Shown here one piece after another: positions 101 through 29,765 of a stretch of 64,000 bases of DNA; the stretch's first letter is position 1, and each line of letters begins with the position of its first letter. Below the pieces are notes generated by a model. That model was not told the origin of the DNA and searched no databases. It saw nothing but the letters and a program-made list of their open reading frames with translations. The position numbers were made by a program, and so were the translations under genes. The DNA lies in assembly GCF_058153355.1 (NCBI RefSeq), contig NZ_CM177019.1. One strand, given 5' to 3'.

Positions 101-107
101 TTGAATG

Positions 108-3295: not shown

Positions 3296-4189
3296 ATGAA
3301 TATTGAACTTCGTCATCTGCGTTACTTTGTTGCTGTTGCGGAAGAGCTGCATTTCGGGCGCGCCGCTGCCCGTCTGAATATTTCGCAACCACCGCTAAGT
3401 CAGCAGATTCAGGCGCTGGAGCAACAAATTGGTGCCCGACTGCTGGCAAGGACCAATCGCAGTGTATTGCTGACGGAAGCAGGAAAACAGTTTCTTGCAG
3501 ATAGTCGGCAAATCCTGTCTATGGTGGATGACGCTGCCGCTCGCGCTGAAAGGCTGCATCAGGGCGAAGCGGGGGAGTTGCGCATTGGTTTTACTTCGTC
3601 CGCTCCTTTTATTCGGGCGGTGTCCGATACGTTATCGCTGTTTCGTCGTGATTATCCCGATGTCCATTTACAAACCCGCGAAATGAACACTCGCGAGCAA
3701 ATCGCTCCGCTCATTGAAGGAACGCTGGATATGGGATTGCTGCGTAACACAGCGTTACCGGAGACGCTTGAACACGCAGTCATCGTCCATGAACCGCTTA
3801 TGGCGATGATCCCGCACGATCATCCCCTGGCAAATAACCCGAGTGTAACGCTGGCTGAACTGGCGAAAGAACCCTTTGTCTTTTTTGATCCGCACGTAGG
3901 GACAGGGCTGTATGACGATATTCTCGGGCTGATGAGACGTTACAATTTGACGCCCGTCATCAATCAGGAGGTGGGTGAGGCAATGACCATCATCGGTCTG
4001 GTTTCCGCTGGTCTGGGTGTTTCAATTTTGCCTGCGTCATTTAAACGTGTTCAGCTCAACGAAATGCGCTGGGTGCCGATTGCTGAAGAGGATGCGGTTT
4101 CTGAAATGTGGTTGGTCTGGCCGAAACACCATGAACAAAGTCCGGCTGCGCGTAACTTTCGTATTCATCTGCTGAATGCTCTCAGGTGA
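3296..4189 (+). CDS. ynfL: LysR-family transcriptional regulator YnfL
   Basis: 297-aa ORF; N-terminal LysR HTH (MNIELRHLRYFVAVAEELHFGRAA); divergent from ynfM. Confidence 0.9.
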   Translation: MNIELRHLRYFVAVAEELHFGRAAARLNISQPPLSQQIQALEQQIGARLLARTNRSVLLTEAGKQFLADSRQILSMVDDAAARAERLHQGEAGELRIGFTSSAPFIRAVSDTLSLFRRDYPDVHLQTREMNTREQIAPLIEGTLDMGLLRNTALPETLEHAVIVHEPLMAMIPHDHPLANNPSVTLAELAKEPFVFFDPHVGTGLYDDILGLMRRYNLTPVINQEVGEAMTIIGLVSAGLGVSILPASFKRVQLNEMRWVPIAEEDAVSEMWLVWPKHHEQSPAARNFRIHLLNALR

Positions 4190-4323
4190 GGGAAATTTCA
4201 GCGAAAAAGCCCGAAAAATGTGCTGTTAATCACATGCCTAAGTAAAAATTTGACGACACGTATTGAAGTGCTTCACCATAGCCTACAGATTATTTCGGAG
4301 CGCGAAAATATAGGGAGTATGCG

Positions 4324-5544: not shown

Positions 5545-5668
5545 CATTTTTTAACTGTTCTACCAAAATTTGCGCTATCTCAATTTGGGCCAGGAAAGCA
5601 TAACTTAGACTTTCAAGGTTAATTATTTTCCTGGTTTATATTTGTGAAGCATAACGGTGGAGTTAGTG

Positions 5669-6364
5669 ATGCTGAAGCGTTTCTTTATTACCGGTACAGA
5701 CACTTCTGTAGGGAAAACGGTGGTTTCCCGCGCATTGCTACAAGCGTTAGCCTCCCAGGGAAAAACGGTTGCGGGATATAAACCCGTAGCGAAGGGGAGC
5801 AAAGAGACACCCGAAGGGCTGCGTAATAAAGATGCCCTGGTGTTGCAGAGTGTTTCAACCATCGAACTGCCTTATGAAGCAGTTAATCCTATTGCGTTAA
5901 GCGAAGAAGAAAGTAGCGTGGCGCACAGTTGCCCAATCAATTACACCCTCATTTCAAACGGCCTGGCAAACCTGACCGATAAAGTCGATCATGTGGTGGT
6001 CGAAGGTACTGGCGGTTGGCGCAGTCTGATGAATGATTTGCGTCCGCTCTCTGAATGGGTGGTGCAGGAACAACTGCCGGTGTTGATGGTTGTCGGTATT
6101 CAGGAAGGTTGCATTAACCATGCACTGCTGACAGCTCAGGCGATTGCCAACGACGGGCTGCCGCTCATTGGCTGGGTGGCTAACCGAATCAACCCAGGAC
6201 TGGCGCATTATGCGGAAATCATTGATGTGCTAGGTAAAAAACTTCCAGCACCGCTCATTGGTGAACTGCCTTATCTGCCGCGCGCCGAACAGCGTGAACT
6301 GGGGCAATACATCCGCTTAGCTATGCTGCGCAGTGTGCTGTCGGTAGATAGAGTCACGGTGTAA
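5669..6364 (+). CDS. bioD2: Dethiobiotin synthetase paralog (BioD2/YnfK)
   Basis: P-loop GTDTSVGKT; start trimmed to MLKRFFITG. Confidence 0.85.
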
Positions 6365-7573
6365 CGTCCGCGAGATTACCGACGCAATCACGCAGGCAAT
6401 CAATAAACCGGGGAGTAGCTGATACTCCCCGGTCATTTCACATATCATCAACGTCGACATAATCGGCGCGTGCGTGGTCGCCGCCAACAGTGTCGCCATC
6501 CCGGTCAATCCGAGTAAAAGCGTAATTTCTTCGCTATCAGGGAACCATAATCCCAGGCTACGACCATACAACATGCCAATGGCAAGACCGATAAATAGCG
6601 TCGGTGTAAAGACACCACCGGGCGCGCCAGAACCACTACTCGCCAGAATGGCAAACAGTTTGCAAAGGAAGATCCCGCCAATGATCATAAACAGTGGCGG
6701 GGCGGTTAAAAAGGATTGTACGGTGCTATAGCCGTTGCCCCACACGGCAGGGGTGAACAGAGAAAGCAGACCCACGATCAACCCGCCGAGTGCTAGTTGC
6801 CAGGGGGGCGCAAGTTTGAGAATAACAAATCCTCGATGACTGGCGTTCATTAACGTTAACAACACTGGTCCGCATAGACCTGCCAGCACACCAGTACTGA
6901 TAATCAGCGCATAGTCACGAGCTTGAACCGTCACTGAGAGTTGCACGCTGTAGAGTAATGCATCGCTATGATTAATCAGATTGCTAATCAGCAACGCCAC
7001 GACAGCAGAAATAACCACCGGTCCGAGAGAGGCCAACATCATAGTGCCAAACAGCACTTCGGCTATAAATAAACTGCCAGCAAGCGGGGCGCGGTAAGCC
7101 GCAGCCATTCCCGCCGCAGCTCCACAGGCAATCCATAATTTCCACTCCTGGCGTGGCGTAAAACGCTGAGCAAAACAGGAGGCGGCAAGGGCAGCTAAAA
7201 GAATCATCGCACCTTCGCGACCAATTGCGCTGCCGCTAGTTACTACCAGCAGAGAGGCAAGCGATTTAACCAGGCTTGCTGCGTAATCGAATTTACCATC
7301 GGTTTGCAACGCTTCCATGTAATCGGTCGGCGCATGAGGGCGTTGCTGGGTAAATTTCTGCCAGCCCATCAGCAACAAACCCGCCGCCAGTCCGCCGAGC
7401 GCCGGAGTTAGCAGCCGTCGCCACGGAGAAAGATTCGTCGCTGCATTGACCAGACTGCCGGAGTCATTATTGAGGAACAGCCATTCCAGTAGCAGCATCG
7501 CGTGACGAAACGCGGCAACGGCAAAGGCCGCAAGAATACCGACTATTGTTGCGATAAGCAGACGGCGAAACAT
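6317..7573 (-). CDS. clcB: Voltage-gated ClC chloride channel ClcB
   Basis: Polytopic membrane ORF; start trimmed to MFRRLLIAT; 3' end overlaps bioD2 convergently. Confidence 0.85.
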
Positions 7574-7766
7574 AGTGCGCAGATCCGGATAGCTGTGTAG
7601 ATGGTGCATGAGCAGAAATGGACAATGAAACACGAGCGACTATTTTGCGGCAAAACAGGTTATCGGCAAAAGCAGTGCGTGCTTAAAGCGATAAAATACG
7701 TGACGTTGTAACGTATTATTGCCGAATGACGCGTGATTGTCGCCATCCGGCAATATTGCGGCAACT

Positions 7767-8381
7767 TTATCGAAACAGTGGTTTAACCGCGACAGGAATC
7801 AACAGTTGTGATTGCCATTGCGCCAGCGTTAAGCGAGCCAGTTCACCCAGCGCACGGTTGAAAGGGTGTTCTGCTTTTTCGATAAAAACGTCGAGAAAAC
7901 GTGTTGACCACGGAAAAAGATGCCATGCCAGCAATTCTTCACATTCTGTCTGGCGACCATTCTCCGCCAACCATGCAACCATCAACAGCAGTGAGCCAAA
8001 ATGATCTTCCGGTTCATTTTGCTTCATTTCAAACTGAATGCCTTTCTCGCGCATCCACTGACGAAGTGCCAATGTTGAATCGCCAAACAGCACAGATTCG
8101 CGATCCAGCCAGACTGACCCCCACGGCGGAGACGGCAGTGCCCACGGGCCGACAAACAAACGCTGCCAGGCCTGGGCGCGAGTCTCTTCACTCTGTGCCT
8201 GAAAAGCCGTCACCAGCGGCGCTAATGACGCTTCTGGTAGAGGCCACTGAGTTTCCCAGCCGTCACTGGTGAGTACCGCAACCAGAGGTGCGGCTTCTGC
8301 ACTCTCTGGAGCGTAATAAAACAGCGCGCCCAACACGCGCGCCGCGACAGAAAAATTATCTTGCTGTGAAAAATGGGTCAT
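7767..8381 (-). CDS. dmsD: Tat proofreading chaperone DmsD
   Basis: Start trimmed to MTHFSQQDNF; last gene of ynfEFGH-dmsD cluster. Confidence 0.85.
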   Translation of the reverse strand: MTHFSQQDNFSVAARVLGALFYYAPESAEAAPLVAVLTSDGWETQWPLPEASLAPLVTAFQAQSEETRAQAWQRLFVGPWALPSPPWGSVWLDRESVLFGDSTLALRQWMREKGIQFEMKQNEPEDHFGSLLLMVAWLAENGRQTECEELLAWHLFPWSTRFLDVFIEKAEHPFNRALGELARLTLAQWQSQLLIPVAVKPLFR

Positions 8382-8423
8382 TCCTAACATCCTGAAATGT
8401 GCGGGTTGCCCCGCACCAATTTG

Positions 8424-9278
8424 TTAACCTGCAATAGCCATTCCTACCGTCATGTGCAGGCCATAAAAGAGCACACGCCCGATCATCTCACCGCCAAGTA
8501 TGAGGATTAGCCCCAGAATAAGTCCGGCAACGTGAGGTTCACGGCGACGAATGAGCGGACAAAGCCAGCATCCTAGACCTGTGCATAACAATACCACACG
8601 CCAGACCTGTAAGGAGGCGTAATCTGGTACCAGTGCGCTGGCTTGTTGTACGGATGAGTGAATAGATGCCAGAGACAAACCTTGCAGCACAATCACTCCG
8701 GCACAAGCGATCAGCGCCAGAACGCTGATCATGGCAAACGGTGTGGTACTAAATGTTACGCGGGCTGCCCGTAGAATTGCGGCAGCAAGTATAGGACCGC
8801 TCAACAATACCGTCAGGAAGAACGCCAGTGTAGTGTAGCCGTTGTGCCAGGTTGGCACAGTGTCGATTTGATACACGCAGGTCATCATCCAGACGAAAAT
8901 GACGCCGAGCACCATGCTAACAAGTAACCAGAGTTTCCCCAGCGCTTGCGGCATTTTACCAATGACCGCCACCAGCCACCATAATCCGCCAACGGCAAAA
9001 AATATTGAACCGGCAGCAATCTCGTTACTCAGGCCGGAAGCTCCGATTCGATTCAGCGAGTTAAACGCCCGCAGTGGCGATCCCAGGTGCATGACAGAGG
9101 CAATAAACCCGATGGCCATCAACAGCCAGAGGAAAAACATGCCACGAACAATGTGCTGACGGTCTGCGTCATTTTTGGCGGCGAACCAGCCAATTCCGCT
9201 AACAATCAGCGCGCCTACTACGCATTGACCCAATACGGTAAAGATAACCAGTGGCCATTCGTGCCATCCATTTCCCAT
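8424..9278 (-). CDS. ynfH: DMSO reductase-type membrane anchor subunit YnfH (DmsC paralog)
   Basis: 284-aa polytopic membrane ORF. Confidence 0.9.
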   Translation of the reverse strand: MGNGWHEWPLVIFTVLGQCVVGALIVSGIGWFAAKNDADRQHIVRGMFFLWLLMAIGFIASVMHLGSPLRAFNSLNRIGASGLSNEIAAGSIFFAVGGLWWLVAVIGKMPQALGKLWLLVSMVLGVIFVWMMTCVYQIDTVPTWHNGYTTLAFFLTVLLSGPILAAAILRAARVTFSTTPFAMISVLALIACAGVIVLQGLSLASIHSSVQQASALVPDYASLQVWRVVLLCTGLGCWLCPLIRRREPHVAGLILGLILILGGEMIGRVLFYGLHMTVGMAIAG

Positions 9279-9279
9279 T

Positions 9280-9897
9280 TTAAACTTCCTCCGGATTAGC
9301 CAGGTAACCAGTGGTATCGCCGGTCGGGCGGCTGTTGGCGTTAGGTTTGATTACGATATTAGGTTTTGTGAAATGCGCGCGCGGCAGTGGCGCGACGGCA
9401 GCCAGAGTACCGTGTTTCTGGCGCAGCTCTTCAATTGGACCGAACTCAAGTGCACGCAGCGGGCAGGATTCGACACAGATGGGTTGTTTCCCTTCGGCGA
9501 CGCGCGAATAACAACCATCGCACTTCGTCATGTGTCCTTTTTCAGCATTGTACTGTGGCGCGCCGTACGGACAGGCCATGTGGCAGTAGCGGCAGCCGAT
9601 ACAAACATCTTCATCAACCACCACAAAGCCATCTTCACGCTTATGCATTGCGCCGCTGGGGCAGACTTTTGTACATGCGGGGTCATCGCAATGGTTACAG
9701 GAGATGGAGAGATAATAAGCGAACACGTTCTGGTGCCAGACGCCATTATCTTCCTGCCAGTCGCCGCCAGCATATTCATAAACACGGCGGAAACTGACTT
9801 CCGGGCCAAGATCTTTAAAATCTTTGCACGCCAGTTCGCAGGTTTTACAGCCAGTACAGCGGCTGGAATCGATAAAAAATCCATATTGTGTGGTCAT
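9280..9897 (-). CDS. ynfG: 4Fe-4S ferredoxin-type subunit YnfG (DmsB paralog)
   Basis: 205 aa with four CxxCxxCxxxCP clusters. Confidence 0.9.
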   Translation of the reverse strand: MTTQYGFFIDSSRCTGCKTCELACKDFKDLGPEVSFRRVYEYAGGDWQEDNGVWHQNVFAYYLSISCNHCDDPACTKVCPSGAMHKREDGFVVVDEDVCIGCRYCHMACPYGAPQYNAEKGHMTKCDGCYSRVAEGKQPICVESCPLRALEFGPIEELRQKHGTLAAVAPLPRAHFTKPNIVIKPNANSRPTGDTTGYLANPEEV

Positions 9898-9907
9898 GGG
9901 CTACTCC

Positions 9908-12208
9908 TTAAACCTTTTCGATCTGGACGAGATTGCTGTGCGACGGGTTTCCCTTTGCCAGCGGTGAAGGGCGGTGAGAGGTCAGAATATTGATACTGCC
10001 GCCGTGATCGACCCGGTCACCAAACATATCCGCTTTAAGCCACGCACCTTGCCCGATGGCGGTTACGCCAGGCAGAATACGCGGAGTCACTTTTGCGGCA
10101 ATCAGCATTTCTCCATTATTGTTAAATACCCGCACTGTATCGCCATGACGGATACCGCGTGCCTGAGCATCAATGGGGTTGATCCACACCTCTTGTGGGC
10201 AGGCCTGCTGTAACACATCAATATTGCCGTAGCTGGAGTGGGTACGCGCTTTGTAGTGGAAGCCCGTTAACTGCAGTGGATAGGTTTTCCGCAGGGGATC
10301 GTCCCAGCCATCAAAACCTGGGGTATACGCAGGAAGGGGATGAATTATTTCATCTTTTTTCAATTCCCAGGTATCCGCAATCGTCGCCAGTCGTTCAGAA
10401 TAAATTTCGATTTTCCCCGAAGGTGTTTTCAACGGGTTTGCCTGTGGATCTTCACGGAATGCGCGGAAAGCGACATAGTGTTCTTCCGGGCATTTTTTCT
10501 TAAAGATCCCGGTCATTTTCATCTCCTCGTAGTCCGGCATCTCAGGGTTACGTTCCTTCGTTTTCGCATGGAGATATTTGATCCATTCATGCTGGCTGCG
10601 ACCTTCAGTAAAAGTTTGATAAACGTCTGGTCCTAAGCGTTTCGCGACTTCACTCAGAATCCAGTAGATGGGTTTGCGTTCAAATTTTGCCGAGGTGGCG
10701 GGTTGGGCGAGGATCACATAGCCCATATTCCCTGCAGATTCATGAGAGATAAGGTCTTCTTGCTCTGTTGGCATCAGGTCGGGCAACAGGATATCGCAAT
10801 ACTTAGCCGAGGCCGTCATGAAGTGGTCAATGCCAACAATCATCTCGCACTTGCTGTCATCCTGAAGCACCTCATGGGTGTGATTGATGTCGCCATGTTG
10901 ATTGATCAATGTGTTACTGGCGTAGCACCATAAAAACTTGATGGGGACATCCAGTTTTTCTTTTCCACGAATACCATCACGGGTCGCGGTCATTTCCGTA
11001 CCGTGGTCGATGGCATCTGTCCATGTAAAGACGGAAATCTGCGTTTTAACAGGATTATCAAGCATCGGGAACCATTCGACCCCCAGATCCCAGCTACCTT
11101 CGCGTACACCTGAGTTGCCGCCGTTTATGCCGACGTTACCGGTGAGAACGGAAAGCATGGCAATAGCGCGGGACGTTTGCTCGCCGTTGGAGTGTCGTTG
11201 TGGCCCCCAACCCTGACAAATATAAGCAGGTTTTGCTGAACCGATCTCTCGTGCCAACTGGATAATTTTTTCTGCCGGGATGCTGGTGATTTTTGCTGCC
11301 CATTCCGGCGTTTTAGCTATGCCGTCAGGTCCTTCGCCCAGAATATAGGCTTTATAATGCGCGTTACGTGGTGCGTTGGCGGGCAGCGTTTTTTCATCGT
11401 AACCAACACAATATTTGTCGAGAAATGGCTGATCGACCATGTTTTCCGTAATCAGTACCCAGGCAATCGCACAGGCCAGTGCGCCATCGGTGCCAGGGCG
11501 AATGGGCAGCCATTCATCTTCACGCCCGGCAGCGGTATCGTTATAACGTGGATCAATGACGATCATGCGTGCGTTTGAACGTTCGCGGGCTTGCTCGACG
11601 TAGTAAGTGACACCACCGCCGCTCATCCGCGTTTCTGCCGGGTTATTTCCGAACATAACGACCAGTTTCGTATTGGCGATATCATCCGGGCTGTTGCCAT
11701 CATTGGCACCGAACATATAACTCATTGCGGCACTGATCTGTGCGGTACTGTAGCTGCCATAGCGACTGAGAAAACCACCACAAGAGTTCATCAGACGGTA
11801 CGGGACGTTTGAGTTGGTGATGTTTCCGCCATCTACGCCTGTTCCGTACAGGACATGTACAGCCTCATTGCCGTAATCTTTTAGGATCCGCCGAAGATTA
11901 TCACTGATGGTATCCAGGGCTTCGTCCCAACTTATCCGTTCAAATTTACCTTCACCGCGCTTGCCGACGCGCTTCATGGGATATTTCAGCCGATCAGGAT
12001 GATTCATCCGTCGGCGGATAGAGCGCCCGCGTAAACAGGCCCGAACCTGATGATTACCGTAAACGTCGTCACCTGTCGTATCAGACTCCACCCAGTACAC
12101 AGTGTCATCTTTCACATGCAAACGTAACAGACAGCGGCTCCCGCAGTTAACGGTGCAGGAACTCCAGACCGCTTTCTCTTCTACCGGAGCCTCTGCCGCT
12201 CGGACCAT
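9908..12208 (-). CDS. ynfF: Molybdopterin oxidoreductase catalytic subunit YnfF (DmsA paralog); main 766-codon frame, apparently lacking its Tat signal peptide because of an upstream frameshift
   Basis: 766-aa ORF highly similar to adjacent ynfE; begins MVRAAEAP immediately after where the paralog carries its RR signal. Confidence 0.85.
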   Translation of the reverse strand: MVRAAEAPVEEKAVWSSCTVNCGSRCLLRLHVKDDTVYWVESDTTGDDVYGNHQVRACLRGRSIRRRMNHPDRLKYPMKRVGKRGEGKFERISWDEALDTISDNLRRILKDYGNEAVHVLYGTGVDGGNITNSNVPYRLMNSCGGFLSRYGSYSTAQISAAMSYMFGANDGNSPDDIANTKLVVMFGNNPAETRMSGGGVTYYVEQARERSNARMIVIDPRYNDTAAGREDEWLPIRPGTDGALACAIAWVLITENMVDQPFLDKYCVGYDEKTLPANAPRNAHYKAYILGEGPDGIAKTPEWAAKITSIPAEKIIQLAREIGSAKPAYICQGWGPQRHSNGEQTSRAIAMLSVLTGNVGINGGNSGVREGSWDLGVEWFPMLDNPVKTQISVFTWTDAIDHGTEMTATRDGIRGKEKLDVPIKFLWCYASNTLINQHGDINHTHEVLQDDSKCEMIVGIDHFMTASAKYCDILLPDLMPTEQEDLISHESAGNMGYVILAQPATSAKFERKPIYWILSEVAKRLGPDVYQTFTEGRSQHEWIKYLHAKTKERNPEMPDYEEMKMTGIFKKKCPEEHYVAFRAFREDPQANPLKTPSGKIEIYSERLATIADTWELKKDEIIHPLPAYTPGFDGWDDPLRKTYPLQLTGFHYKARTHSSYGNIDVLQQACPQEVWINPIDAQARGIRHGDTVRVFNNNGEMLIAAKVTPRILPGVTAIGQGAWLKADMFGDRVDHGGSINILTSHRPSPLAKGNPSHSNLVQIEKV

Positions 12209-12333
12209 TTGGGAAAATGGCAGAGTGAAAGCACTGCTTGCCAGTCGAGACTGCCAAGTGCGGAGGTTTTCATAAGACTTCTACGGCTGATTTCAGCCTT
12301 CATGAGCGCCTCTGTGGTATGGATTTTCATCAT
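12181..12333 (-). pseudogene. ynfF: Orphaned Tat-signal-peptide fragment of ynfF in a different frame (MMKIHTTEALMKAEISRRSLMKTSALGSL...)
   Basis: Manual translation; twin-arginine motif SRRSLMK; frame departs from the main ynfF frame near nt 12250 and stops at 12181. Confidence 0.55.
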
Positions 12334-15428: not shown

Positions 15429-16139
15429 GTGAAATACAAATTACTGCCATGCTTACTCGCGATATTACTCACAGGATGTGACCGCACAGAGGTAACACTT
15501 TCATTTACCCCTGAGATGGCCAGTTTCTCTAATGAATTCGATTTTGATCCGCTGCGTGGTCCGGTAAAAGATTTCACTCAGACATTAATGGATGAGCAAG
15601 GTGAAGTGACGAAACGTGTTTCGGGGACTTTGTCGGAAGAAGGCTGTTTTGATTCACTCGAATTACTGGATCTGGAAAATAATACCGTGGTTGCCCTGGT
15701 ATTGGACGCCAATTATTACCGTGATGCCCAGACGCTGGAGAAAAGAGTACGTTTACAGGGAAAATGCCAGCTAGCAGAATTACCTTCTGCCGGGGTGAGT
15801 TGGGAAACCGATGATAATGGCTTCGTGATTAAAGCCAGCAGCAAACAAATGCAGATGGAATATCGCTATGATGAGCAGGGGTATCCGCTGGGTAAAACCA
15901 CGAAAAGTAACGACAAAACATTATCTGTCAGCGCCACGCCATCAACGGATCCGATCAAAAAATTAGATTACACCGCGGTTACTTTACTGAATAATCAACG
16001 GGTAGGTAATGTAAAACAGAGCTGTGAATATGACAGTCACGCCAATCCGGTGGACTGTCAGCTAATCATTGTTGATGAAGGAGTAAAACCCGCCGTCGAA
16101 CGGGTTTATACCATCAAAAATACTATCGATTATTATTAA
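15429..16139 (+). CDS. ynfC: Lipoprotein YnfC (UPF0257), GTG start
   Basis: Lipobox LLTGC after signal peptide. Confidence 0.8.
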   Translation: MKYKLLPCLLAILLTGCDRTEVTLSFTPEMASFSNEFDFDPLRGPVKDFTQTLMDEQGEVTKRVSGTLSEEGCFDSLELLDLENNTVVALVLDANYYRDAQTLEKRVRLQGKCQLAELPSAGVSWETDDNGFVIKASSKQMQMEYRYDEQGYPLGKTTKSNDKTLSVSATPSTDPIKKLDYTAVTLLNNQRVGNVKQSCEYDSHANPVDCQLIIVDEGVKPAVERVYTIKNTIDYY

Positions 16140-16141
16140 TG

Positions 16142-16702
16142 CTATTGTGCGGTCGGCTTCAGGAGAGTCTGACCCGGTGTTTTGTGCTCTGCCAGATACT
16201 GATGCTGGAATATGCACATGCGAATGGCATTCCGATATTGACCATTAATAAAGAACTCATGCATCAATTCACCTTCAACCGTAAAGCCAAGCTTGCGGTA
16301 AATGTGAATTGCTTTTTCGTTCTCTTTATCGACGATCAGATACAGCTTATAGAGATTGAGAACGGTGAAGCCATAGTCCATTGCTAATTTTGCGGCACGC
16401 GTTGCCAGACCTTTCCCCTGATACTCCGGGGAGATAATTATCTGAAATTCTGCGCGGCGATGGACATGGTTAATTTCCACCAGCTCCACCAGACCGGCTT
16501 TTTCGCCGTCACATTCCACCACAAAGCGCCGCTCGCTCTGATCGTGAATATGCTTATCATACAGATCAGAGAGTTCAACGAAGGCTTCGTAGGGTTCCTC
16601 AAACCAGTAACGCATCACACTGGCGTTATTGTCGAGTTGATGTACATAGCGTAAATCTTCACGCTCCAGCGGACGTAGCTTAACACTGTGGGCGCTTGGC
16701 AT
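16142..16702 (-). CDS. speG: Spermidine N1-acetyltransferase SpeG (GNAT)
   Basis: 186-aa ORF recognised as SpeG. Confidence 0.9.
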
Positions 16703-16736
16703 AACGTGTCCTTACATTCCTTAAATCAATAACAGG

Positions 16737-17078
16737 TTAGGGGGTAATAACGCGGCCAGTTCGACGGTCCAGGCAGCGCAATGTATTTGGCTCCCAGTAG
16801 GCATTGATGTTGGCACTTTGCTCGCATTTATCGCGGTTATCAAAAGCGGCGTCGGCTTTATCCCACTCTTTTTCAGTGCGTTTATTCACTTTCTGTCGCA
16901 GATTGCGCGTGTCATTCCATTGTTCTTTTTCCATTGCTGCGTGCTGGCGGCTTTGTGCTCTGTCGCCAGACTCAATCACCAGTTTGTTAGTTTCGGCATG
17001 GGCCGTTGTGCTCAATGCCAGTGCGCAAGGCAGCAGAAAAGCGAGCAGGCCAATTCGTTTGCTGAGAGTAATTTTCAT
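16737..17078 (-). CDS. ynfB: Secreted protein YnfB (UPF0482)
   Basis: 113 aa with signal peptide. Confidence 0.85.
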
Positions 17079-17212
17079 AATTCATTCCCTGTATGAATGA
17101 TTAAAGGTGATTCTACACCATCCACTGCGAACGCAAAACGTACCAGGAGGATGTTTATATTGATGATATTATGTCGTCCTATAACTATACATGATGTCAA
17201 TAAGTGACAAAG

Positions 17213-17539
17213 ATGATTAAAACAACGTTACTATTTTTTGCTACTGCGCTGTGTGAAATTATTGGATGCTTTCTGCCCTGGTTGTGGTTAAAACGAAACG
17301 CCAGTATCTGGCTGTTGCTTCCGGCGGGGATTTCTCTGGCACTGTTTGTCTGGTTGTTAACGTTGCATCCTGCGGCGAGTGGGCGTGTTTACGCGGCTTA
17401 TGGTGGCGTTTATGTCTGCACGGCGTTGATTTGGCTGCGCGTTGTGGATGGCGTGAAGTTAAGTCTTTATGACTGGACGGGGGCGTTGATTGCGCTTTGC
17501 GGCATGTTGATCATTGTTGCGGGCTGGGGGCGCGCGTAA
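17213..17539 (+). CDS. ynfA: Small inner-membrane protein YnfA (UPF0060)
   Basis: Start trimmed to MIKTTLLFF; hydrophobic. Confidence 0.8.
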
Positions 17540-17744
17540 GGACATAAATCCATTTTATCAATAAGATACAAGGAAGTGTCAGCTGACAAAAGGTATTCTA
17601 TTTCATCTTTTGTCAACCATTCACGGCGCAAATATACACCTTTTTTTGTGATCACTCCGGCTTTTTTCGATCTTTATACTTGTATGGTAGTAGCTCAGTT
17701 GCGTAGATTTCATGCATCACGACAAGCGATGCAAGGAATCGAAC

Positions 17745-18959
17745 ATGAAGATCGTAAAGGCTGAAGTTTTTGTTACCTGTCCGGGGCGTAATTTCGTCAC
17801 ATTAAAAATCACCACTGAGGACGGTATTACGGGCCTTGGGGATGCCACCCTCAATGGACGTGAGCTTTCCGTGGCCTCTTATTTGCAGGATCACCTTTGT
17901 CCGCAGCTTATTGGTCGCGATGCACAGCGTATCGAAGATATCTGGCAGTTTTTTTATAAAGGTGCTTACTGGCGTCGCGGTCCGGTGACGATGTCGGCCA
18001 TTTCAGCGGTTGATATGGCGCTGTGGGATATTAAAGCCAAAGCTGCCAACATGCCGCTTTACCAGTTACTCGGCGGCGCGTCTCGTGAAGGGGTGATGGT
18101 TTATTGCCATACCACCGGTCACAGTATTGATGAAGCTCTGGATGATTATGCCCGTCATCAGGCGCTGGGATTCAAAGCCATCCGCGTGCAGTGCGGAATC
18201 CCTGGTATGAAAACCACCTACGGCATGTCGAAAGGCAAAGGTCTGGCTTATGAACCCGCAACCAAAGGACAGTGGCCGGAAGAGCAGCTGTGGTCGACGG
18301 AGAAATACCTCGATTTCATGCCGAAATTGTTTGACGCGGTACGTAACAAGTTTGGTTTTAATGAACATTTGCTACATGACATGCACCATCGCTTAACGCC
18401 TATTGAAGCGGCGCGCTTTGGTAAAAGCATTGAAGATTATCGCATGTTCTGGATGGAAGACCCGACGCCTGCGGAAAACCAGGAATGCTTCCGCCTGATT
18501 CGCCAACACACCGTCACGCCAATTGCAGTGGGTGAAGTCTTCAATAGCATTTGGGACTGCAAACAGCTGATTGAAGAACAACTTATCGACTATATCCGCA
18601 CCACGCTGACTCACGCGGGGGGGATTACCGGTATGCGCCGGATTGCCGATTTTGCTTCGCTGTATCAGGTACGTACTGGCTCACACGGTCCTTCCGATTT
18701 GTCGCCAGTCTGCATGGCTGCGGCGCTGCACTTTGATCTGTGGGTCCCCAATTTCGGTGTCCAGGAATACATGGGTTATTCCGAACAAATGCTTGAAGTC
18801 TTCCCGCACAACTGGACTTTCGATAACGGCTATATGCATCCGGGAGACAAACCGGGTCTTGGCATCGAATTCGATGAAAAGCTGGCGGCGAAATATCCCT
18901 ATGAACCTGCTTATCTGCCAGTCGCACGTCTGGAAGATGGCACGCTGTGGAACTGGTAA
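17745..18959 (+). CDS. rspA: Enolase-superfamily mannonate/altronate dehydratase-like starvation-sensing protein RspA
   Basis: Start trimmed to [10 protein letters not shown]. Confidence 0.9.
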
Positions 18960-18970
18960 GGAGTAAGATA

Positions 18971-19990
18971 ATGAAAAGCATTTTAATTGAAAAACCGAAT
19001 CAACTGGCAATTATCGAACGCGAAATACCCACCCCGTCAGCGGGTGAAGTACGAGTAAAAGTGAAACTTGCCGGAATTTGTGGTTCAGATAGCCATATTT
19101 ATCGTGGGCATAATCCTTTTGCGAAATATCCGCGCGTCATTGGACATGAATTCTTTGGCGTCATTGATGCAGTGGGTGAAGGCGTGGAAAGCGACAGAGT
19201 CGGTGAACGCGTTGCTGTCGATCCGGTGGTCAGCTGTGGGCATTGCTATCCGTGCTCTATAGGTAAGCCGAACGTTTGTACGACACTGGCTGTATTAGGT
19301 GTGCACGCTGACGGTGGTTTCAGTGAATATGCCGTGGTGCCGGCAAAAAATGCGTGGAAAATTCCTGAAGCAGTGGCCGATCAATATGCGGTGATGATCG
19401 AACCTTTTACCATTGCGGCTAACGTTACCGGTCATGGTCAACCGACTGAAAATGATACCGTTCTGGTTTACGGTGCAGGTCCAATCGGCCTGACAATCGT
19501 TCAGGTATTAAAAGGCGTCTATAACGTTAAGAATGTGATTGTTGCCGATCGCATTGATGAACGACTGGAAAAAGCGAAAGAGAGCGGGGCAGACTGGGCG
19601 ATTAATAACAGCCAGACACCGCTTGGCGAGATTTTCGCTGAAAAAGGCATAAAGCCGACATTAATTATCGATGCGGCTTGTCATCCTTCAATCCTGAAAG
19701 AAGCCGTAACGCTGGCTTCTCCAGCGGCACGTATTGTATTGATGGGCTTCTCCAGTGAACCGTCTGAAGTGATTCAGCAAGGAATTACCGGAAAAGAACT
19801 CTCTATTTTCTCTTCACGCTTAAATGCAAATAAATTCCCGGTCGTTATCGACTGGTTAAGTAAAGGGTTAATTAAACCAGAAAAACTAATTACCCATACG
19901 TTTGATTTCCAGCATGTTGCTGATGCCATTAGTTTATTTGAACAGGATCAAAAGCATTGCTGCAAAGTCTTACTCACTTTTTCTGAATAA
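18971..19990 (+). CDS. rspB: Zinc-dependent alcohol dehydrogenase-family protein RspB
   Basis: GHEFFG and Zn-ligand Cys cluster; start trimmed to MKSILIEK. Confidence 0.9.
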   Translation: MKSILIEKPNQLAIIEREIPTPSAGEVRVKVKLAGICGSDSHIYRGHNPFAKYPRVIGHEFFGVIDAVGEGVESDRVGERVAVDPVVSCGHCYPCSIGKPNVCTTLAVLGVHADGGFSEYAVVPAKNAWKIPEAVADQYAVMIEPFTIAANVTGHGQPTENDTVLVYGAGPIGLTIVQVLKGVYNVKNVIVADRIDERLEKAKESGADWAINNSQTPLGEIFAEKGIKPTLIIDAACHPSILKEAVTLASPAARIVLMGFSSEPSEVIQQGITGKELSIFSSRLNANKFPVVIDWLSKGLIKPEKLITHTFDFQHVADAISLFEQDQKHCCKVLLTFSE

Positions 19991-20047
19991 TACCAATAAC
20001 GGCGAGTAAGTAGTACGCATCTTACCTCTTTTTTAGAGATAACCATT

Positions 20048-21415
20048 ATGACAATAGAAAAACACGAAAGAAGCACTAAGGATTTGGTGAAAGCAGCAGT
20101 ATCGGGATGGCTGGGCACTGCGCTTGAATTCATGGATTTCCAGTTATATTCGCTCGGCGCAGCGTTAGTGTTTCATGAAATATTTTTTCCTGAATCATCA
20201 ACGGCAATGGCGTTAATTCTGGCAATGGGAACCTACGGTGCAGGTTATGTGGCGCGTATTGTCGGAGCATTTATTTTCGGCAAAATGGGCGACAGAATCG
20301 GGCGTAAAAAAGTGCTCTTTATTACCATCACTATGATGGGGATCTGTACCACCTTAATTGGTGTGCTGCCGACCTATGCACAAATTGGTGTGTTTGCGCC
20401 AATTTTGCTGGTGACGCTGCGTATTATTCAGGGGCTGGGGGCAGGCGCGGAAATTTCCGGTGCCGGTACGATGCTGGCGGAATATGCGCCAAAAGGTAAG
20501 CGCGGAATTATCTCCTCATTTGTTGCTATGGGGACTAACTGCGGAACCTTGAGCGCAACGGCAATCTGGGCCTTTATGTTCTTCATTCTCAGTAAAGAGG
20601 AACTGTTGGCGTGGGGATGGCGTATACCGTTCCTGGCGAGCGTTGTCGTGATGGTCTTTGCTATCTGGTTGCGTATGAATCTGAAAGAAAGCCCGGTCTT
20701 TGAGAAGGTTAACGACAGCAACCAACCGACAGCAAAACCTGCACCTGCTGGTAGCATGTTCCAGAGCAAATCCTTCTGGCTGGCAACAGGGCTGCGTTTT
20801 GGTCAGGCTGGTAACTCAGGTTTAATTCAGACTTTCCTTGCAGGCTATTTAGTGCAGACGTTATTGTTTAACAAAGCAATTCCAACAGATGCATTGATGA
20901 TCAGTTCGATTCTCGGCTTTATGACCATTCCGTTCCTTGGTTGGTTATCCGATAAAATTGGTCGCCGGATCCCGTATATTATTATGAATACCTCTGCGAT
21001 TGTGCTGGCGTGGCCAATGCTTTCTATCATCGTAGATAAAAGCTATGCCCCGAGCACCATTATGGTTGCACTGATTGTGATTCATAACTGTGCGGTGCTG
21101 GGATTATTTGCTCTGGAAAACATTACCATGGCAGAAATGTTCGGCTGTAAAAATCGCTTTACCCGGATGGCCATTTCTAAAGAAATTGGTGGTCTTATCG
21201 CTTCCGGTTTTGGTCCTATCCTGGCGGGTATTTTCTGCACCATGACGGAATCCTGGTATCCGATCGCCATTATGATCATGGCATATTCAGTGATTGGTTT
21301 AATCTCTGCGCTGAAAATGCCAGAAGTGAAAGACCGTGATTTAAGTGCACTGGAAGATGCCGCGGAAGATCAACCGCGTGTTGTAACAGCTGCGCAACCT
21401 TCAAGAAGTCTGTAA
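20048..21415 (+). CDS. ydfJ: MFS transporter YdfJ, uninterrupted
   Basis: 455-aa polytopic ORF directly downstream of rspB. Confidence 0.85.
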   Translation: MTIEKHERSTKDLVKAAVSGWLGTALEFMDFQLYSLGAALVFHEIFFPESSTAMALILAMGTYGAGYVARIVGAFIFGKMGDRIGRKKVLFITITMMGICTTLIGVLPTYAQIGVFAPILLVTLRIIQGLGAGAEISGAGTMLAEYAPKGKRGIISSFVAMGTNCGTLSATAIWAFMFFILSKEELLAWGWRIPFLASVVVMVFAIWLRMNLKESPVFEKVNDSNQPTAKPAPAGSMFQSKSFWLATGLRFGQAGNSGLIQTFLAGYLVQTLLFNKAIPTDALMISSILGFMTIPFLGWLSDKIGRRIPYIIMNTSAIVLAWPMLSIIVDKSYAPSTIMVALIVIHNCAVLGLFALENITMAEMFGCKNRFTRMAISKEIGGLIASGFGPILAGIFCTMTESWYPIAIMIMAYSVIGLISALKMPEVKDRDLSALEDAAEDQPRVVTAAQPSRSL

Positions 21416-21504
21416 ATCCTCCATCCCTTCTCTTACCGGAGAGGGGATTTTTTATTCATATAACAAAACATGCAGCTTGCCATATTTAAATTTAAGGAAT
21501 TGTT

Positions 21505-22965
21505 ATGGGAAATAATTTGTTATCAGCAAAAGCGACGCTCCCTGTTTATGATCGTAATAACCTGGCCCCAAGAATTGTTCATTTAGGCTTTGGTGCATTT
21601 CACCGTGCGCATCAGGGCGTGTATGCCGATATTCTTGCTACGGAACATTTCAGTGACTGGGGATATTATGAGGTCAATTTAATCGGCGGCGAACAGCAAA
21701 TTGCCGATTTACAACAGCAAGATAATCTTTATACCGTTGCGGAAATGTCGGCCGATGCGTGGACGGCTCGCGTCGTTGGCGTCGTTAAAAAAGCCTTGCA
21801 CATACAAATAGATGGCTTAGAAACCGTGCTGGCTGCGATGTGTGAACCGCAAATCGCGATTGTCTCTCTGACAATCACCGAAAAAGGGTATTTCCACTCT
21901 CCGGCGACCGGACAGTTAATGCTCGATCACCCGATGGTCGTTGCCGACGTGCAAAATCCCCACCAGCCGAAAACTGCAACAGGGGTGATTGTTGAGGCGC
22001 TGGCTCGCCGTAAAGCGGCAGGACTTCCCGCATTTACCGTCATGTCATGTGACAACATGCCAGAAAACGGTCATGTTATGCGTGACGTTGTCACTTCCTA
22101 CGCGCAAGCTGTTGATGTAAAACTGGCACAATGGATCGAAGAAAACGTGACTTTCCCATCAACAATGGTGGACCGTATTGTGCCCGCAGTGACAGAGGAT
22201 ACGCTGGCGAAAATCGAACAACTTACCGGTGTGCGCGATCCTGCTGGCGTTGCTTGTGAACCTTTCCGCCAGTGGGTAATAGAAGATAACTTTGTTGCCG
22301 GACGTCCGGAATGGGAAAAAGCGGGAGCCGAACTGGTTAGTGATGTGCTGCCTTATGAAGAGATGAAGTTGCGCATGCTCAACGGCAGTCATTCATTCCT
22401 GGCGTATCTGGGTTATCTTGCCGGATATCAGCACATTAATGACTGCATGGAAGATGAACATTATCATCATGCAGCGTATGCCTTGATGTTGCAGGAACAA
22501 GCGCCGACGTTGAAAGTGCAGGACGTTGATTTGCAAGATTACGCTAACCGATTAATTGAACGCTATAGCAACCCGGCGCTACGTCATCGAACCTGGCAGA
22601 TTGCGATGGATGGCAGCCAGAAATTGCCACAGCGGATGTTGGATTCTGTTCGCTGGCATCTGGCGCATGACAGCAAGTTCGATCTGCTGGCGCTGGGCGT
22701 CGCGGGTTGGATGCGTTATGTCGGTGGTGTTGATGAACAGGGAAATCAGATAGAAATCAGTGACCCACTGTTACCTGTTATTCAGAAGGCAGTACAAAGT
22801 AGTGCTGAAGGGACAGCGCGCGTCCAGTCATTGCTGGCAATTAAGGCGATCTTTGGTGATGATTTACCAGGCAATAGTTTGTTTACGACAAAAGTAACGG
22901 AAGCGTACTTGTCTTTATTAGCGCATGGCGCGAAAGCGACCGTGGCGAAATATTCCGTGAAGTAA
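21505..22965 (+). CDS. ydfI: Mannitol dehydrogenase-family oxidoreductase YdfI
   Basis: 486 aa; N-terminal Rossmann [10 protein letters not shown]. Confidence 0.85.
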
Positions 22966-23000
22966 AAAAAGCAATGCCGCCATCGGCGGCATTCACACGC

Positions 23001-23204
23001 TTAGTTCATGCCGAGACGAATCAGGTCCAGTGGTGCCAGTTTCTCTTCACAACCTTCAACAACTACGGTTTTTCCGCGGCGGATTTGCTCAGCGGTCAGA
23101 CCTTCAGTATCAATCGACAGGATCTTGCCAGTGTGACCGGTGCCGCTAACCATAACACGGCTGCCAGTGGTGATTGCGTTACGGTTACGATCGTAGGTCG
23201 TCAT
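23001..23204 (-). CDS. ydfZ: Small protein YdfZ (67 aa)
   Basis: [30 protein letters not shown]... Confidence 0.85.
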
Positions 23205-23380
23205 AGGTGTTTTCTCCTTTCTGATTTACAGTCGAAGCCCACGTAACGGGCGCAATATAAATACTCCTGTCGAGTGAAATATTTTTTGTTTTTGATCAAG
23301 CTCACATCTTTTTTGATGCATGCATGAGCCATATGACGGAGGGAAAAACTCTCACCCCTGATGGGATGAGAGGAAATGAA

Positions 23381-24067
23381 TTACTCTTCGCTAAACCAGT
23401 CGCTGTTTTCCTGGCGGATCTGGCGCACGGATTCGCTGATTTCCTGCAAATGTTGCGTCATTGCACGTTCTACCGCATCGCCATCACGTTTTTGCAGGGC
23501 AGAGAAAATCTCAAGATGCTGGCGTAACAGCATTTCTGGTGGAGAAACGTGGTCGAAACTCATATAGCGCACGCGATCAACGGTCGCTTTCAGGTTCTCA
23601 ATGGTATCCCACGCCAGTTGACAGTCGGCAATCTGCGTCAGGAGTTGATGGAAGTTGTCATCAAGTTCAAAAAAATCATCCAGTTGCTTGCGCTCAATGG
23701 CAATGCGTTGCTGGTGAAGATTTTGTTCCAGTTGGTAGCACTGGCTTTCGGTAATCATGCTCGCCGCCCGACGCGCCACCGCGCACTCAATGGCCTGACG
23801 GATAAAACTGCCGTTGTGCACCTGGGCCATGGAAATTTTGTTGACGTAGCTGCCACGCTGCGGACGAATTTGAATCAGGCCGTTTTCCGCCAGTTTAATA
23901 AAGGCTTCACGAACCGGCTGGCGTGACACATTGAAACGAACAGAAACTTCTTTTTCCGACAACGGTGTGCCTGGTGCAATCAGGCAATGGACAATGTCGC
24001 GGCGAAGAATACGATAAATCTGCTGATTGACAGGCTGTGTGGGATTAAGTTGCGTTTCGACGGTCAT
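23381..24067 (-). CDS. ydfH: GntR/FadR-family regulator YdfH (RspR)
   Basis: 228 aa with N-terminal GntR HTH. Confidence 0.85.
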
Positions 24068-24155
24068 TCGTTCTTGCTTGTGAGTGAGTTAACTGCATGA
24101 GTCTACCACTTTTTTGTGACAAGCAATAACCCGGCAGTTACGCCGGGTATAAAAA

Positions 24156-24902
24156 TTACTGACGGTGGACATTCAGTCCGGCATAGCTTTGGGTAACCGG
24201 CATCATTTCCAGGGTATTGATATTGACGTGAGCAGGTAGCGTTGACACCCACCAGACGGCTTCGCTGACATCTTCTGGCGTCAATGCAACGGTATTTTGA
24301 TAGGTTTTTTCCGCTTTACCGTCATCACCTTTAAAGCGGACATTGGAAAACTCGGTGCCACCCACCAGTCCCGGTTCGATGTCTGTGACACGTACTGCCG
24401 TACCGTGCAGATCTGTGCGTAGATTAAGGCTGAACTGACGAACAAACGCTTTCGTCGCACCATAAACGTTACCACCAGCATACGGCCAGCTGCCTGCCGT
24501 GGAGCCAATGTTAATGATATGACCATGATTACGTTCAACCATACCCGGTAAGACGGCCCGCGTCATATATACCAGGCCTTTGTTGTTGGTATCAATCATC
24601 GTTTCCCAGTCTTCAACGCTGGCTTTATGCGCAGGCTCCATGCCCAGCGCCAGACCGGCATTGTTTACCAGGATATCAATATTGCACCACTCGGCAGGAA
24701 GCGATGCCAGCATCTCTTCAATAGCGGCGCGATTACGAACGTCCAGTTGGGCGATATACAGATTATCACCCAGTTCGTCTTTTAACTCCTGCAACCGCTC
24801 CTGGCGACGGCCAGTGGCGATAACTTTATGCCCTTGTTGAATAAAACGACGAGTAATGCATTCACCAAAACCTGCCGTTGCTCCAGTTACTAAAACGATC
24901 AT
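24156..24902 (-). CDS. ydfG: NADP-dependent short-chain dehydrogenase YdfG
   Basis: TGATAGFG Rossmann motif; start trimmed to MIVLVTG. Confidence 0.85.
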   Translation of the reverse strand: MIVLVTGATAGFGECITRRFIQQGHKVIATGRRQERLQELKDELGDNLYIAQLDVRNRAAIEEMLASLPAEWCNIDILVNNAGLALGMEPAHKASVEDWETMIDTNNKGLVYMTRAVLPGMVERNHGHIINIGSTAGSWPYAGGNVYGATKAFVRQFSLNLRTDLHGTAVRVTDIEPGLVGGTEFSNVRFKGDDGKAEKTYQNTVALTPEDVSEAVWWVSTLPAHVNINTLEMMPVTQSYAGLNVHRQ

Positions 24903-25038
24903 CTCACTGTTCCTCAACGCTTTTGTGTGTCAATAACATAGCACGTGATGCTTAAGAGCGGGTAATACTGGTTTGCAAGATTGCACTCCGTTATCAGTAA
25001 GCCTACGCTATGGAACACCTCGCGTTCAGGAGAAGAAA

Positions 25039-27084
25039 ATGACAACAATGAATCCTTTCCTTGTGCAAAGCACACTGCCGTATCTGGCTCCCCATTTTGA
25101 TCAAATTGCCAATCATCACTATCGACCGGCATTTGATGAGGGAATGCAGCAAAAGCGGGCCGAAATTGCCGCCATTGCGCTCAACCCGCAAACACCTGAT
25201 TTCAACAATACTATTCTGGCACTGGAGCAGAGTGGGGAACTGCTGACCCGCGTCACCAGCGTTTTTTTTGCGATGACTGCGGCGCATACCAATGATGAAT
25301 TACAGCGTCTTGATGAGCAGTTTTCCGCTGAACTGGCAGAACTGGCTAATGATATCTATCTGAACGGTGAATTATTCGCGCGAGTAGATGCTGTCTGGCA
25401 GCGCCGTGAATCCGAGGGGCTTGATAGTGAATCCATTCGCCTGGTGGAGGTTATTCATCAACGTTTTGTCCTTGCCGGAGCCAAACTTGCACAAGCTGAT
25501 AAAGCAAAATTAAAAGTTCTTAATACAGAAGCTGCGACCCTGACCAGCCAGTTTAATCAGCGGTTACTTGCGGCAAATAAATCCGGCGGTCTGGTTCTGG
25601 ACGATATTGCGCAACTGGCTGGGATGAGCGAACAGGAGATTGCGCTGGCGGCAGAGGCGGCTCGCGAGAAAGGTCTGGATAACAAATGGCTTATTCCGCT
25701 GCTGAATACCACCCAGCAACCGGCGCTTGCTGAACTTCGCGATCGCGCGACGCGTGAAAAACTATTCACTGCGGGCTGGACGCGGGCAGAAAAAAATGAC
25801 GCTAACGATACCCGTGCCATTATTCAACGGCTTGTGGAGATCCGCGCGCAGCAGGCAAAACTGCTTGGCTTCCCTCATTATGCCGCATGGAAAATCGCCG
25901 ATCAGATGGCAAAAACGCCAGAAGCAGCACTCAACTTTATGCGGGAAATTGTTCCAGCGGCGCGTCAACGTGCGAGCGATGAATTAGCCTCCATACAGGC
26001 GGTTATCGATAAGCAGCAGGGCGGGTTTAGCGCGCAGCCGTGGGACTGGGCATTTTATGCCGAGCAGGTAAGACGTGAGAAATTCGATCTCGATGAAGCG
26101 CAGCTCAAACCTTATTTCGAATTAAACACGGTGTTGAATGAAGGTGTATTCTGGACCGCGAATCAGCTCTTCGGTATTAAGTTTGTCGAACGTTTTGATA
26201 TTCCTGTCTACCATCCTGACGTTCGTGTGTGGGAAATTTTTGATCATAATGGCGTGGGGCTGGCGTTATTTTACGGTGATTTCTTCGCCCGTGATTCAAA
26301 AAGCGGCGGTGCATGGATGGGCAATTTTGTTGAGCAATCAACGCTGAATGAAACGCATCCGGTAATTTATAACGTCTGCAATTATCAGAAACCCGCTGCC
26401 GGTGAACCTGCGTTGTTACTCTGGGATGATGTGATAACCTTATTCCATGAATTTGGTCATACGCTGCACGGCCTTTTTGCCCGCCAGCGTTATGCCACGC
26501 TTTCCGGTACCAACACGCCGCGTGATTTTGTCGAATTTCCATCGCAAATCAACGAACACTGGGCAACGTATCCGCAGGTATTCGCTCGCTACGCCCGGCA
26601 TTATCAGAGCGGGGCAGCAATGCCTGACAAACTGCAACAGAAAATGCGTAAAGCCAGCCTGTTCAACAAAGGGTATGAGATGAGCGAACTGCTTAGCGCC
26701 GCACTTCTCGATATGCGCTGGCATTGCCTGGAAGAAAACGAAGCAATGCAGGATGTCGATGATTTCGAATTGTGGGCGCTGGTGGCGGAAAATATGGATC
26801 TTCCTGCTATACCGCCACGCTATCGCAGCAGTTATTTCGCCCATATTTTTGGTGGCGGATATGCCGCAGGTTATTATGCTTATCTGTGGACGCAAATGTT
26901 GGCCGATGATGGTTATCAGTGGTTTGTTGAGCAGGGCGGATTAACGCGTGAAAATGGGCTGCGTTTTCGCGAGGCGATCCTTTCCAGAGGTAACAGCGAA
27001 GATCTGGAACGCCTGTATCGACAATGGCGCGGTAAGGCTCCTCAGATTATGCCGATGCTGCAACATCGTGGCTTGAACATATAA
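25039..27084 (+). CDS. dcp: Dipeptidyl carboxypeptidase II (M3 zinc metallopeptidase) Dcp
   Basis: HEFGH zinc motif; start trimmed to MTTMNPFLVQ. Confidence 0.9.
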   Translation: MTTMNPFLVQSTLPYLAPHFDQIANHHYRPAFDEGMQQKRAEIAAIALNPQTPDFNNTILALEQSGELLTRVTSVFFAMTAAHTNDELQRLDEQFSAELAELANDIYLNGELFARVDAVWQRRESEGLDSESIRLVEVIHQRFVLAGAKLAQADKAKLKVLNTEAATLTSQFNQRLLAANKSGGLVLDDIAQLAGMSEQEIALAAEAAREKGLDNKWLIPLLNTTQQPALAELRDRATREKLFTAGWTRAEKNDANDTRAIIQRLVEIRAQQAKLLGFPHYAAWKIADQMAKTPEAALNFMREIVPAARQRASDELASIQAVIDKQQGGFSAQPWDWAFYAEQVRREKFDLDEAQLKPYFELNTVLNEGVFWTANQLFGIKFVERFDIPVYHPDVRVWEIFDHNGVGLALFYGDFFARDSKSGGAWMGNFVEQSTLNETHPVIYNVCNYQKPAAGEPALLLWDDVITLFHEFGHTLHGLFARQRYATLSGTNTPRDFVEFPSQINEHWATYPQVFARYARHYQSGAAMPDKLQQKMRKASLFNKGYEMSELLSAALLDMRWHCLEENEAMQDVDDFELWALVAENMDLPAIPPRYRSSYFAHIFGGGYAAGYYAYLWTQMLADDGYQWFVEQGGLTRENGLRFREAILSRGNSEDLERLYRQWRGKAPQIMPMLQHRGLNI

Positions 27085-29470: not shown

Positions 29471-29502
29471 ACATTCATTGAGAAAACTGATGCTACTGTG
29501 TC

Positions 29503-29594
29503 AACGATCCGTTATCAGTGCAGGAAAATGCCTGTTAGCGTAAAAGCAAAACACAAATCTATCCATGCAAGCATTCACCGCCGGTTTACTGGCG
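29503..29594 (+). ncRNA. mgrR: Candidate PhoP-regulated sRNA MgrR (about 90-98 nt), ends approximate
   Basis: PhoP-box-like repeat and -10 upstream; strong intrinsic terminator (7-bp GC stem plus T9) at 29568-29594; no ORF; known neighbourhood of mgtS. Confidence 0.5.
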
Positions 29595-29600
29595 GTTTTT

Positions 29601-29642
29601 TTTTCGCCGTCATAAAAATCAGGCCCCTTGTACACAACTGTA
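29601..29642 (-). terminator. Intrinsic terminator downstream of mgtS
   Basis: 10-bp stem ggccccttgt/acaaggggcc followed on the minus strand by TGATTTTTAT. Confidence 0.5.
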
Positions 29643-29669
29643 ACAAGGGGCCGGTTAGGTGAGGGATTA

Positions 29670-29765
29670 TCTCCGTTCATTAGTCATCCCATTTGTGGCT
29701 GAAATACGCGGCCAGAAACCCAGAAAATAAAATTATTCCCAGTACGGCCATAAAAACATTCATAT
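29670..29765 (-). CDS. mgtS: Small membrane protein MgtS (YneM), 31 aa
   Basis: Manual translation MLGNMNVFMAVLGIILFSGFLAAYFSHKWDD*. Confidence 0.7.

Follow-up and report, generated by a model that had tools for sequence, protein, structure and literature searches.

The 64,000-nucleotide stretch of E. coli DNA analyzed here (hereafter, the window; contig NZ_CM177019.1 of NCBI RefSeq assembly GCF_058153355.1) almost certainly has the rspA-rspB-ydfJ-ydfI sugar-acid cluster in its ancestral, uninterrupted state, with an unoccupied attB site for Qin/mEp460-type phages inside the 5' end of ydfJ. The TAA stop codon of rspB occupies positions 19988-19990 and the ATG of ydfJ starts at 20048, so the two genes are separated by a spacer of exactly 57 bp (19991-20047), the same distance that a preliminary description of this DNA had read from the letters. 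Downstream of this spacer, ydfJ is a single ORF, with neither a separate 5' stub (ynfP) nor a remnant that begins at Met29. The coordinates of the features discussed below are collected in Table 1.

Table 1. Genes of the rsp cluster and sequence features at the rspB-ydfJ junction (window coordinates)
Feature	Position	Strand	Description
rspA	17745-18959	+	404 aa, intact; D-mannonate dehydratase (ManD) family enzyme
rspB	18971-19990	+	339 aa, intact; Zn-dependent oxidoreductase
Conserved 39-nt block	20009-20047	+	just upstream of the ydfJ ATG; ..GTACGCATCTTACC..AGAGATAACCATT, also given as GTACGCATCTTACC..AGAGATAGCCATT
ydfJ	20048-21415	+	455 aa, full length; MHS-family MFS transporter
Unoccupied attB for Qin/mEp460-type lambdoid phages	20125-20143	.	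TGAATTCATGGATTTCCAG; ydfJ codons 27-32
Presumed crossover region	20132-20140	.	9 bp, ATGGATTTC; shared without mismatch by attB, attP and the two prophage junctions
Terminator-like hairpin	21423-21448	+	directly after the ydfJ stop; 11-pair stem, then a T run; from a consensus scan only
ydfI	21505-22965	+	486 aa, intact; mannitol-dehydrogenase-family oxidoreductase, fructuronate reductase subfamily
rspR (ydfH)	23381-24067	-	228 aa; regulator gene of the cluster, opposite strand to rspA-ydfI

All four genes from rspA to ydfI are intact, lie on one strand in the conserved order, and have rspR next to them; their products all scored above the NCBIfam cut-offs, and the enzyme assignments drawn from these models are at the level of the family only. 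RspA matched the ManD equivalog model NF043051 with 741.7 bits (cut-off 550), aligning from residue 12 of the listed ORF, whose start codon is present in the sequence, and RspB matched the equivalog model NF007489 end to end (profile positions 1-339) with 694.7 bits against a cut-off of 376. YdfI reached 646.7 bits with NF011611 (cut-off 603). The match of YdfJ to TIGR00883 (metabolite/H+ symporter) extended over the full length of the protein at 462.9 bits (cut-off 443.45), which bears out the earlier reading of ydfJ as a full-length transporter of 455 aa. We also observed that the proteins of the cluster differ from their RefSeq counterparts by 0-2 aa. RspB is identical to the Zn-dependent oxidoreductase RspB of strain R32_14_1F, and YdfJ is identical to the "MHS family MFS transporter YdfJ" of both R32_14_1F and 2013C-4282, which share one protein accession; compared with R32_14_1F, YdfI differs by 1 aa and RspA by 2 aa. 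The assignment of rspR follows from synteny with the annotated rspR of K-12 and other strains, and the gene is kept beside the cluster in most other species.

Within the 57-bp spacer, a simple scan reported neither terminator-like nor promoter-like sites, but 3' of ydfJ it did report a strong hairpin followed by a T run. This outcome is consistent with transcription of ydfJ together with rspAB. The cluster is reportedly tied to L-gulonate catabolism via fructuronate and mannonate. With all of its genes intact, we infer that it provides a working route of uptake and catabolism that is absent from K-12.

To place the junction relative to K-12, we compared the window with the corresponding region of MG1655, where the annotation puts the cryptic prophage Qin at 1632277..1652745 (20,469 bp) and gives the gene order ydfI, ydfJ (b1543, 427 aa), Qin, ynfP (36 aa), rspB, rspA. 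BLAST aligned window positions 15886-20143 to the rspB side and 20125-25419 to the ydfJ side of the MG1655 region, skipping Qin altogether. The two alignments are each ∼97.3% identical and overlap by 19 bp, at 20125-20143. Qin is therefore inserted within ydfJ in MG1655, 78-96 nt past the start codon (codons 27-32), and not in the 57-bp spacer. The spacer between rspB and ynfP in K-12 is also 57 bp long (between the ynfP start at position 25839 and the rspB end at position 25897 of the K-12 locus) and is 100% identical to that of the window; K-12 departs from the window only after ATGGATTTC, at window position 20140. The translation of ynfP consists of ydfJ codons 1-31 followed by five phage-derived codons, and b1543 corresponds to YdfJ from Met29 onward, that is, without residues 1-28. 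The first transmembrane helix region begins within the residues lost in K-12. Thus the window and K-12 share the chromosomal site, the flanks that align on either side of 20125-20143 and the rspB-proximal spacer, but the window has one att core where K-12 has two hybrid junctions, and a 455-aa ydfJ where K-12 has the 36-aa ynfP stub and a 427-aa remnant.

The preliminary description had placed, in K-12 MG1655, a cryptic Qin prophage of roughly 20 kb between ydfJ and rspB, and had named alignment to MG1655 as the test of that placement. The position it gave proved essentially right: the annotation does list Qin between the two genes, although the insertion lies inside ydfJ and the spacer is not its site. 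The gene content it gave agrees with the MG1655 annotation as well, in which Qin carries dicA, dicB, dicC, dicF, relBE, hokD, cspB, cspF and cspI together with a pseudogenised intQ. As for the claim that no Qin-type prophage sits at the junction, its substance stands, since the alignment skips Qin and the searches for Qin returned no hits, but the interval given for it does not, the true site being 20125-20143 rather than 19991-20047. Neither tblastn with 35 Qin proteins nor blastn with the Qin interior found a Qin match anywhere in the 64-kb window at E ≤ 1e-3, in keeping with the statement that the prophage-borne toxin-antitoxin and division-inhibitor genes are absent from this locus. The earlier suggestion of a non-K-12 lineage likewise holds on sequence identity: the window belongs to such a lineage, because it is 97.0-97.4% identical to K-12 in the flanking sequence close to the site and 95.5-97.1% identical at greater distances.

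The boundaries of the site at 20125-20143 rest on two observations, namely the overlap of the two K-12 alignments and the breakpoints of the E. coli genomes with an insertion, which fall in the same place. This 19-mer is present once in the 64-kb window, allowing up to 3 mismatches. We defined its core by a four-way alignment of the window attB, the attP of phage mEp460 and the two K-12 junctions. The window attB reads GCGCT-TGAATTC-ATGGATTTC-CAG-TTATATT, and the mEp460 attP reads CACCTG-TGAATT-ATGGATTTC-AAG-AGTCATA. The K-12 junction on the rspB side combines the left arm of attB with the right arm of attP, and the junction on the ydfJ side combines the left arm of attP with the right arm of attB, an anatomy that fits the Campbell model of integration. 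The same hybrid cores were found in both K-12 junctions, in the rspB-side junction of KK05-19 and in the ydfJ-side junction of EDL933.

We then joined the phage-side arms of both Qin ends into a hypothetical attP of 309 bp. This rebuilt attP is contiguous, at 98.7-99.7% identity over the 309 bp, in four sequenced lambdoid phages (PhiR42_1, HannyBb, mEp460_ev081 and Tritos), and adjoins the integrase gene in each of them. The attP sites of these phages thus equal the joined phage-side ends of Qin, and they share with the window attB the 9-bp ATGGATTTC core and partial homology in the sequence flanking it. They differ in that the phage partner site lies beside integrase and excisionase genes, whereas the window holds the bacterial partner only. 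In genomes with an insertion, integrase and excisionase genes also lie directly adjacent to the rspB-side junction. From this gene placement and the anatomy of the junctions, we infer that the phage integrase uses 20125-20143 as its integration site. The same ydfJ core is shared by prophages with other cargo: in O157:H7 EDL933, a lambdoid prophage with NleG effector genes abuts a truncated ydfJ, which is annotated as missing its N-terminus at the junction, and 34 records of Stx2a-converting phages match the integrase-side att arm from the core onward. Unlike these elements, the window carries neither NleG type III secretion effectors nor Stx2a.

Taken together with the Campbell model, these sequences suggest how the two forms of the locus would be related. 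In strains with the prophage, recombination between phage attP and attB by a Qin/mEp460-type tyrosine integrase would have split ydfJ. The first 31 codons of ydfJ would then remain next to rspB behind the unchanged 57-bp spacer, and ydfJ from Met29 onward would be displaced beyond the prophage, ∼20 kb away in the case of K-12. No such integration is visible in the window, and ydfJ is therefore whole and directly 3' of rspB. Similar behavior is known from e14 at icd and Rac at ttcA, where a tyrosine integrase also targets a short core within a conserved coding sequence and where occupancy also varies among strains (PMC6379469). The outcomes for the target genes differ, however: integration of e14 leaves icd with a second copy of its 3' end, and that of Rac alters the N-terminus of TtcA (PMC6379469), whereas Qin-type integration removes the ydfJ promoter and the first 28 codons and supplies no replacement.

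Whether Qin occupies ydfJ is a common polymorphism that has already been published, and there is nothing new about the empty state. By site-specific integration, Qin enters the 5' end of ydfJ, which thereby loses its promoter and is truncated by 28 N-terminal codons; the prophage was present in 48% of 638 strains (PMC6379469). For four laboratory strains (E. coli W, K-12, B and Crooks), ydfJ was also listed as the gene into which Qin is inserted (PMC3032704), and in SE11 a lambda-like prophage was placed "between ydfJ and rspB" (PMC2608844).

Next to this record, we surveyed the junction in complete E. coli genomes, a comparison that the preliminary description had proposed. With a 1.3-kb query, the junction was contiguous in 2006 of the 5386 matching genomes; with a 201-bp query centered on the core, it was contiguous in 2008 of 5370. 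The remaining matching genomes break at query positions equivalent to window 20125-20143. Hence ∼37% of matching complete E. coli genomes are empty at the ydfJ site and ∼63% are interrupted.

To ask which state came first, we examined 80 Enterobacterales loci, one genome per species, from genera including Citrobacter, Enterobacter, Klebsiella, Raoultella, Kluyvera, Kosakonia, Buttiauxella, Serratia, Pragia and Gilliamella. In 78 of these 80 other species, rspB lies directly upstream of ydfJ with a gap of 38-172 bp (median 55), usually with rspA before rspB and with ydfI and rspR after ydfJ, so that the gene order of the window is common to most of them. Because 78 of the 80 species have it, the contiguous rspB-ydfJ arrangement is, judged by comparative gene order, the ancestral one, as had been proposed at the outset; within Escherichia the survey covered a single further entry, Escherichia sp. 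E1V33 (87.7% nucleotide identity), and the argument therefore rests on the more distant genera. One of the two exceptions is a contig edge. The other is Silvania hatchlandensis, in which, over a locus of positions 1-7314, ydfJ is truncated at the same Met29 (MDFQLYSLG..) with phage tail-fibre-like ORFs upstream, and no rspAB was found within 6 kb of the truncated gene. Thus, prophage use of this ydfJ site seems to extend to a genus other than Escherichia.

We also considered whether the point of interest of the spacer is not a missing prophage but a conserved element that controls ydfJ in cis, either as a protein operator or as an mRNA leader. Across genera, the 39-nt block that ends at the ydfJ ATG is about as conserved as the coding DNA around it: its median identity is 0.79, compared with 0.77 (ydfJ) and 0.72 for the neighboring coding DNA. 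In 43 of the 78 other species, its core motif, GTACGCAT, keeps a constant distance from the ATG, and in many species an ATGCG..CGCAT inverted repeat surrounds the motif. However, the left arm of this repeat is degenerate in E. coli, and the demands of ribosome binding could by themselves conserve sequence so close to a start codon; the block may be no other than a translation-initiation region. RNAalifold returned no consensus RNA structure for the 39-nt block and Rfam returned no match to it. The motif has no second copy upstream of rspA or ydfI, nor elsewhere in the window beyond chance. With the structure, family and copy searches all empty, a consensus RNA structure or a repeated operator in the spacer was rejected as a candidate, and so was a promoter or terminator within the 57 bp, of which the scan reported none. 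We consider it unlikely that such an element is what matters about the spacer, and an element of this kind would in any case be compatible with an empty attB, since both can hold. The more specific proposal, that 20009-20047, which is conserved in many genera of the Enterobacteriaceae, is an undescribed operator or mRNA leader setting the expression of ydfJ within the rsp cluster, strikes us as quite doubtful; if it were true, K-12 would have a cis-element stranded ahead of the ynfP stub.

A second alternative accepts the empty attB but reverses its history: the site would formerly have held a Qin-type prophage that was later excised precisely by integrase and excisionase, making the empty state secondary. 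The share of interrupted genomes given above implies that gains at this site are frequent across the species, and functional phages with a matching attP, integrase and excisionase exist. Against this stand the near-universal contiguity among the outgroup species, the lack of any phage remnant in the window, and a core whose bases are of the host type at the positions that distinguish attB from attP (20141 is C, not A, and the core is not shortened by 1 bp). The host-type core is nevertheless compatible with excision too, because a precise event leaves no scar and restores exactly the same sequence. On balance, we hold a secondary loss to be improbable. That the contiguity is an assembly artefact, with a prophage collapsed or dropped, is next to inconceivable: similar prophages can confuse assemblers, but we found no further support for such an error, and the same contiguous sequence is present in ∼2000 independently finished E. 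coli genomes at up to 100% identity across the core, the ydfJ frame is perfect and encodes a protein identical to a RefSeq protein, and the core is present exactly once.

An uninterrupted ancestral cluster with an empty attB, the reading that we favor, has a few consequences. The strain lacks the Qin-borne DicB/DicF, RelBE, HokD and cold-shock genes at this locus and is not K-12-like at the Qin site. With its attB intact, it could in principle acquire mEp460-type, Stx2a-converting or effector-carrying phages there, which is mildly relevant to typing and risk assessment. Since ydfJ is intact, the rsp cluster may also function as a complete unit for uptake and catabolism, which is not the case in K-12. 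Beyond correct annotation, the observation is of little importance, and the locus represents an ordinary prophage polymorphism.

Several other parts of the window were compared with related strains. Strain 2013C-4282 (compared over a locus of positions 1-10500), which resembles the window most closely at the ydfJ junction, has a prophage inserted in ynfG, at a distance of ∼10 kb; this prophage encodes Hok/Gef and Ant and includes an 8.4-kb gene with an LPD38 domain. Unlike in 2013C-4282, ynfG is intact in the window (9280-9897) and contains no prophage. The gene ynfF (9908-12331, minus strand) has, relative to R32_14_1F, a 1-bp deletion near 12245, ∼86 nt into the gene and in the Tat signal region, which splits the ORF into pieces of 766 aa and 50 aa; this is either a pseudogene or a sequencing error. 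Among the 5426 complete RefSeq E. coli genomes searched, identity over the 24 kb around the junction (8000-32000) is 97.4% in most and exceeds 98.8% in none, and no genome has a coverage above 90% for the final 24 kb (40000-64000). The best-matching genomes also change from segment to segment of the window. Since no genome exceeds 98.8% and the best matches differ by segment, the window points to a poorly represented or mosaic lineage; the 64 kb contain no phylogroup marker genes.

Other differences from K-12 lie toward the end of the window. Between yneG and dgcF, ∼500 bp (40528-41025) are absent from K-12; at this position other strains have a longer, sensor-domain diguanylate cyclase annotated (1419 nt), and the dgcF of K-12 looks like a deleted form. 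An element of the IS200/IS605 family, also absent from K-12, lies between tam and lsrG at 45607-47354. Its tnpB (45651-46859, minus strand; 402 aa) has OrfB_IS605 and Cas12f1-like TNB domains. The IS200-type tnpA (46875-47447) is probably frameshifted, because its alignment to Y1_Tnp starts only at profile position 11 and the N-terminus is found in another frame (46867-47085). Fragments of an autotransporter (the K-12 pseudogene yneO; ECSE_1600 family) occupy 56230-58648 and are broken into several ORFs, and an internal duplication in this interval is evident from the peptide MNVGTTGTGTLTLTNNG.., which recurs in two consecutive ORFs. The terminal segment (58626-64000) lacks nearly all of the toxin-antitoxin locus hipBA that K-12 has, and only ∼280 bp around the 3' end of hipA match. 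This hipA remnant is followed by ∼5 kb with no K-12 counterpart, including a gene for a 400-aa leucine-rich-repeat protein (60610-61812, minus strand). The ORF may be a truncated effector-like gene, because a related strain has an NEL-type E3 ubiquitin ligase annotated in the region. Among small RNAs, Rfam did not report mgrR in the window, although it is annotated in the corresponding region of K-12; the sole Rfam match above the gathering score in the window is the Hfq-binding sRNA STnc560 (29472-29686, plus strand; 277.5 bits).
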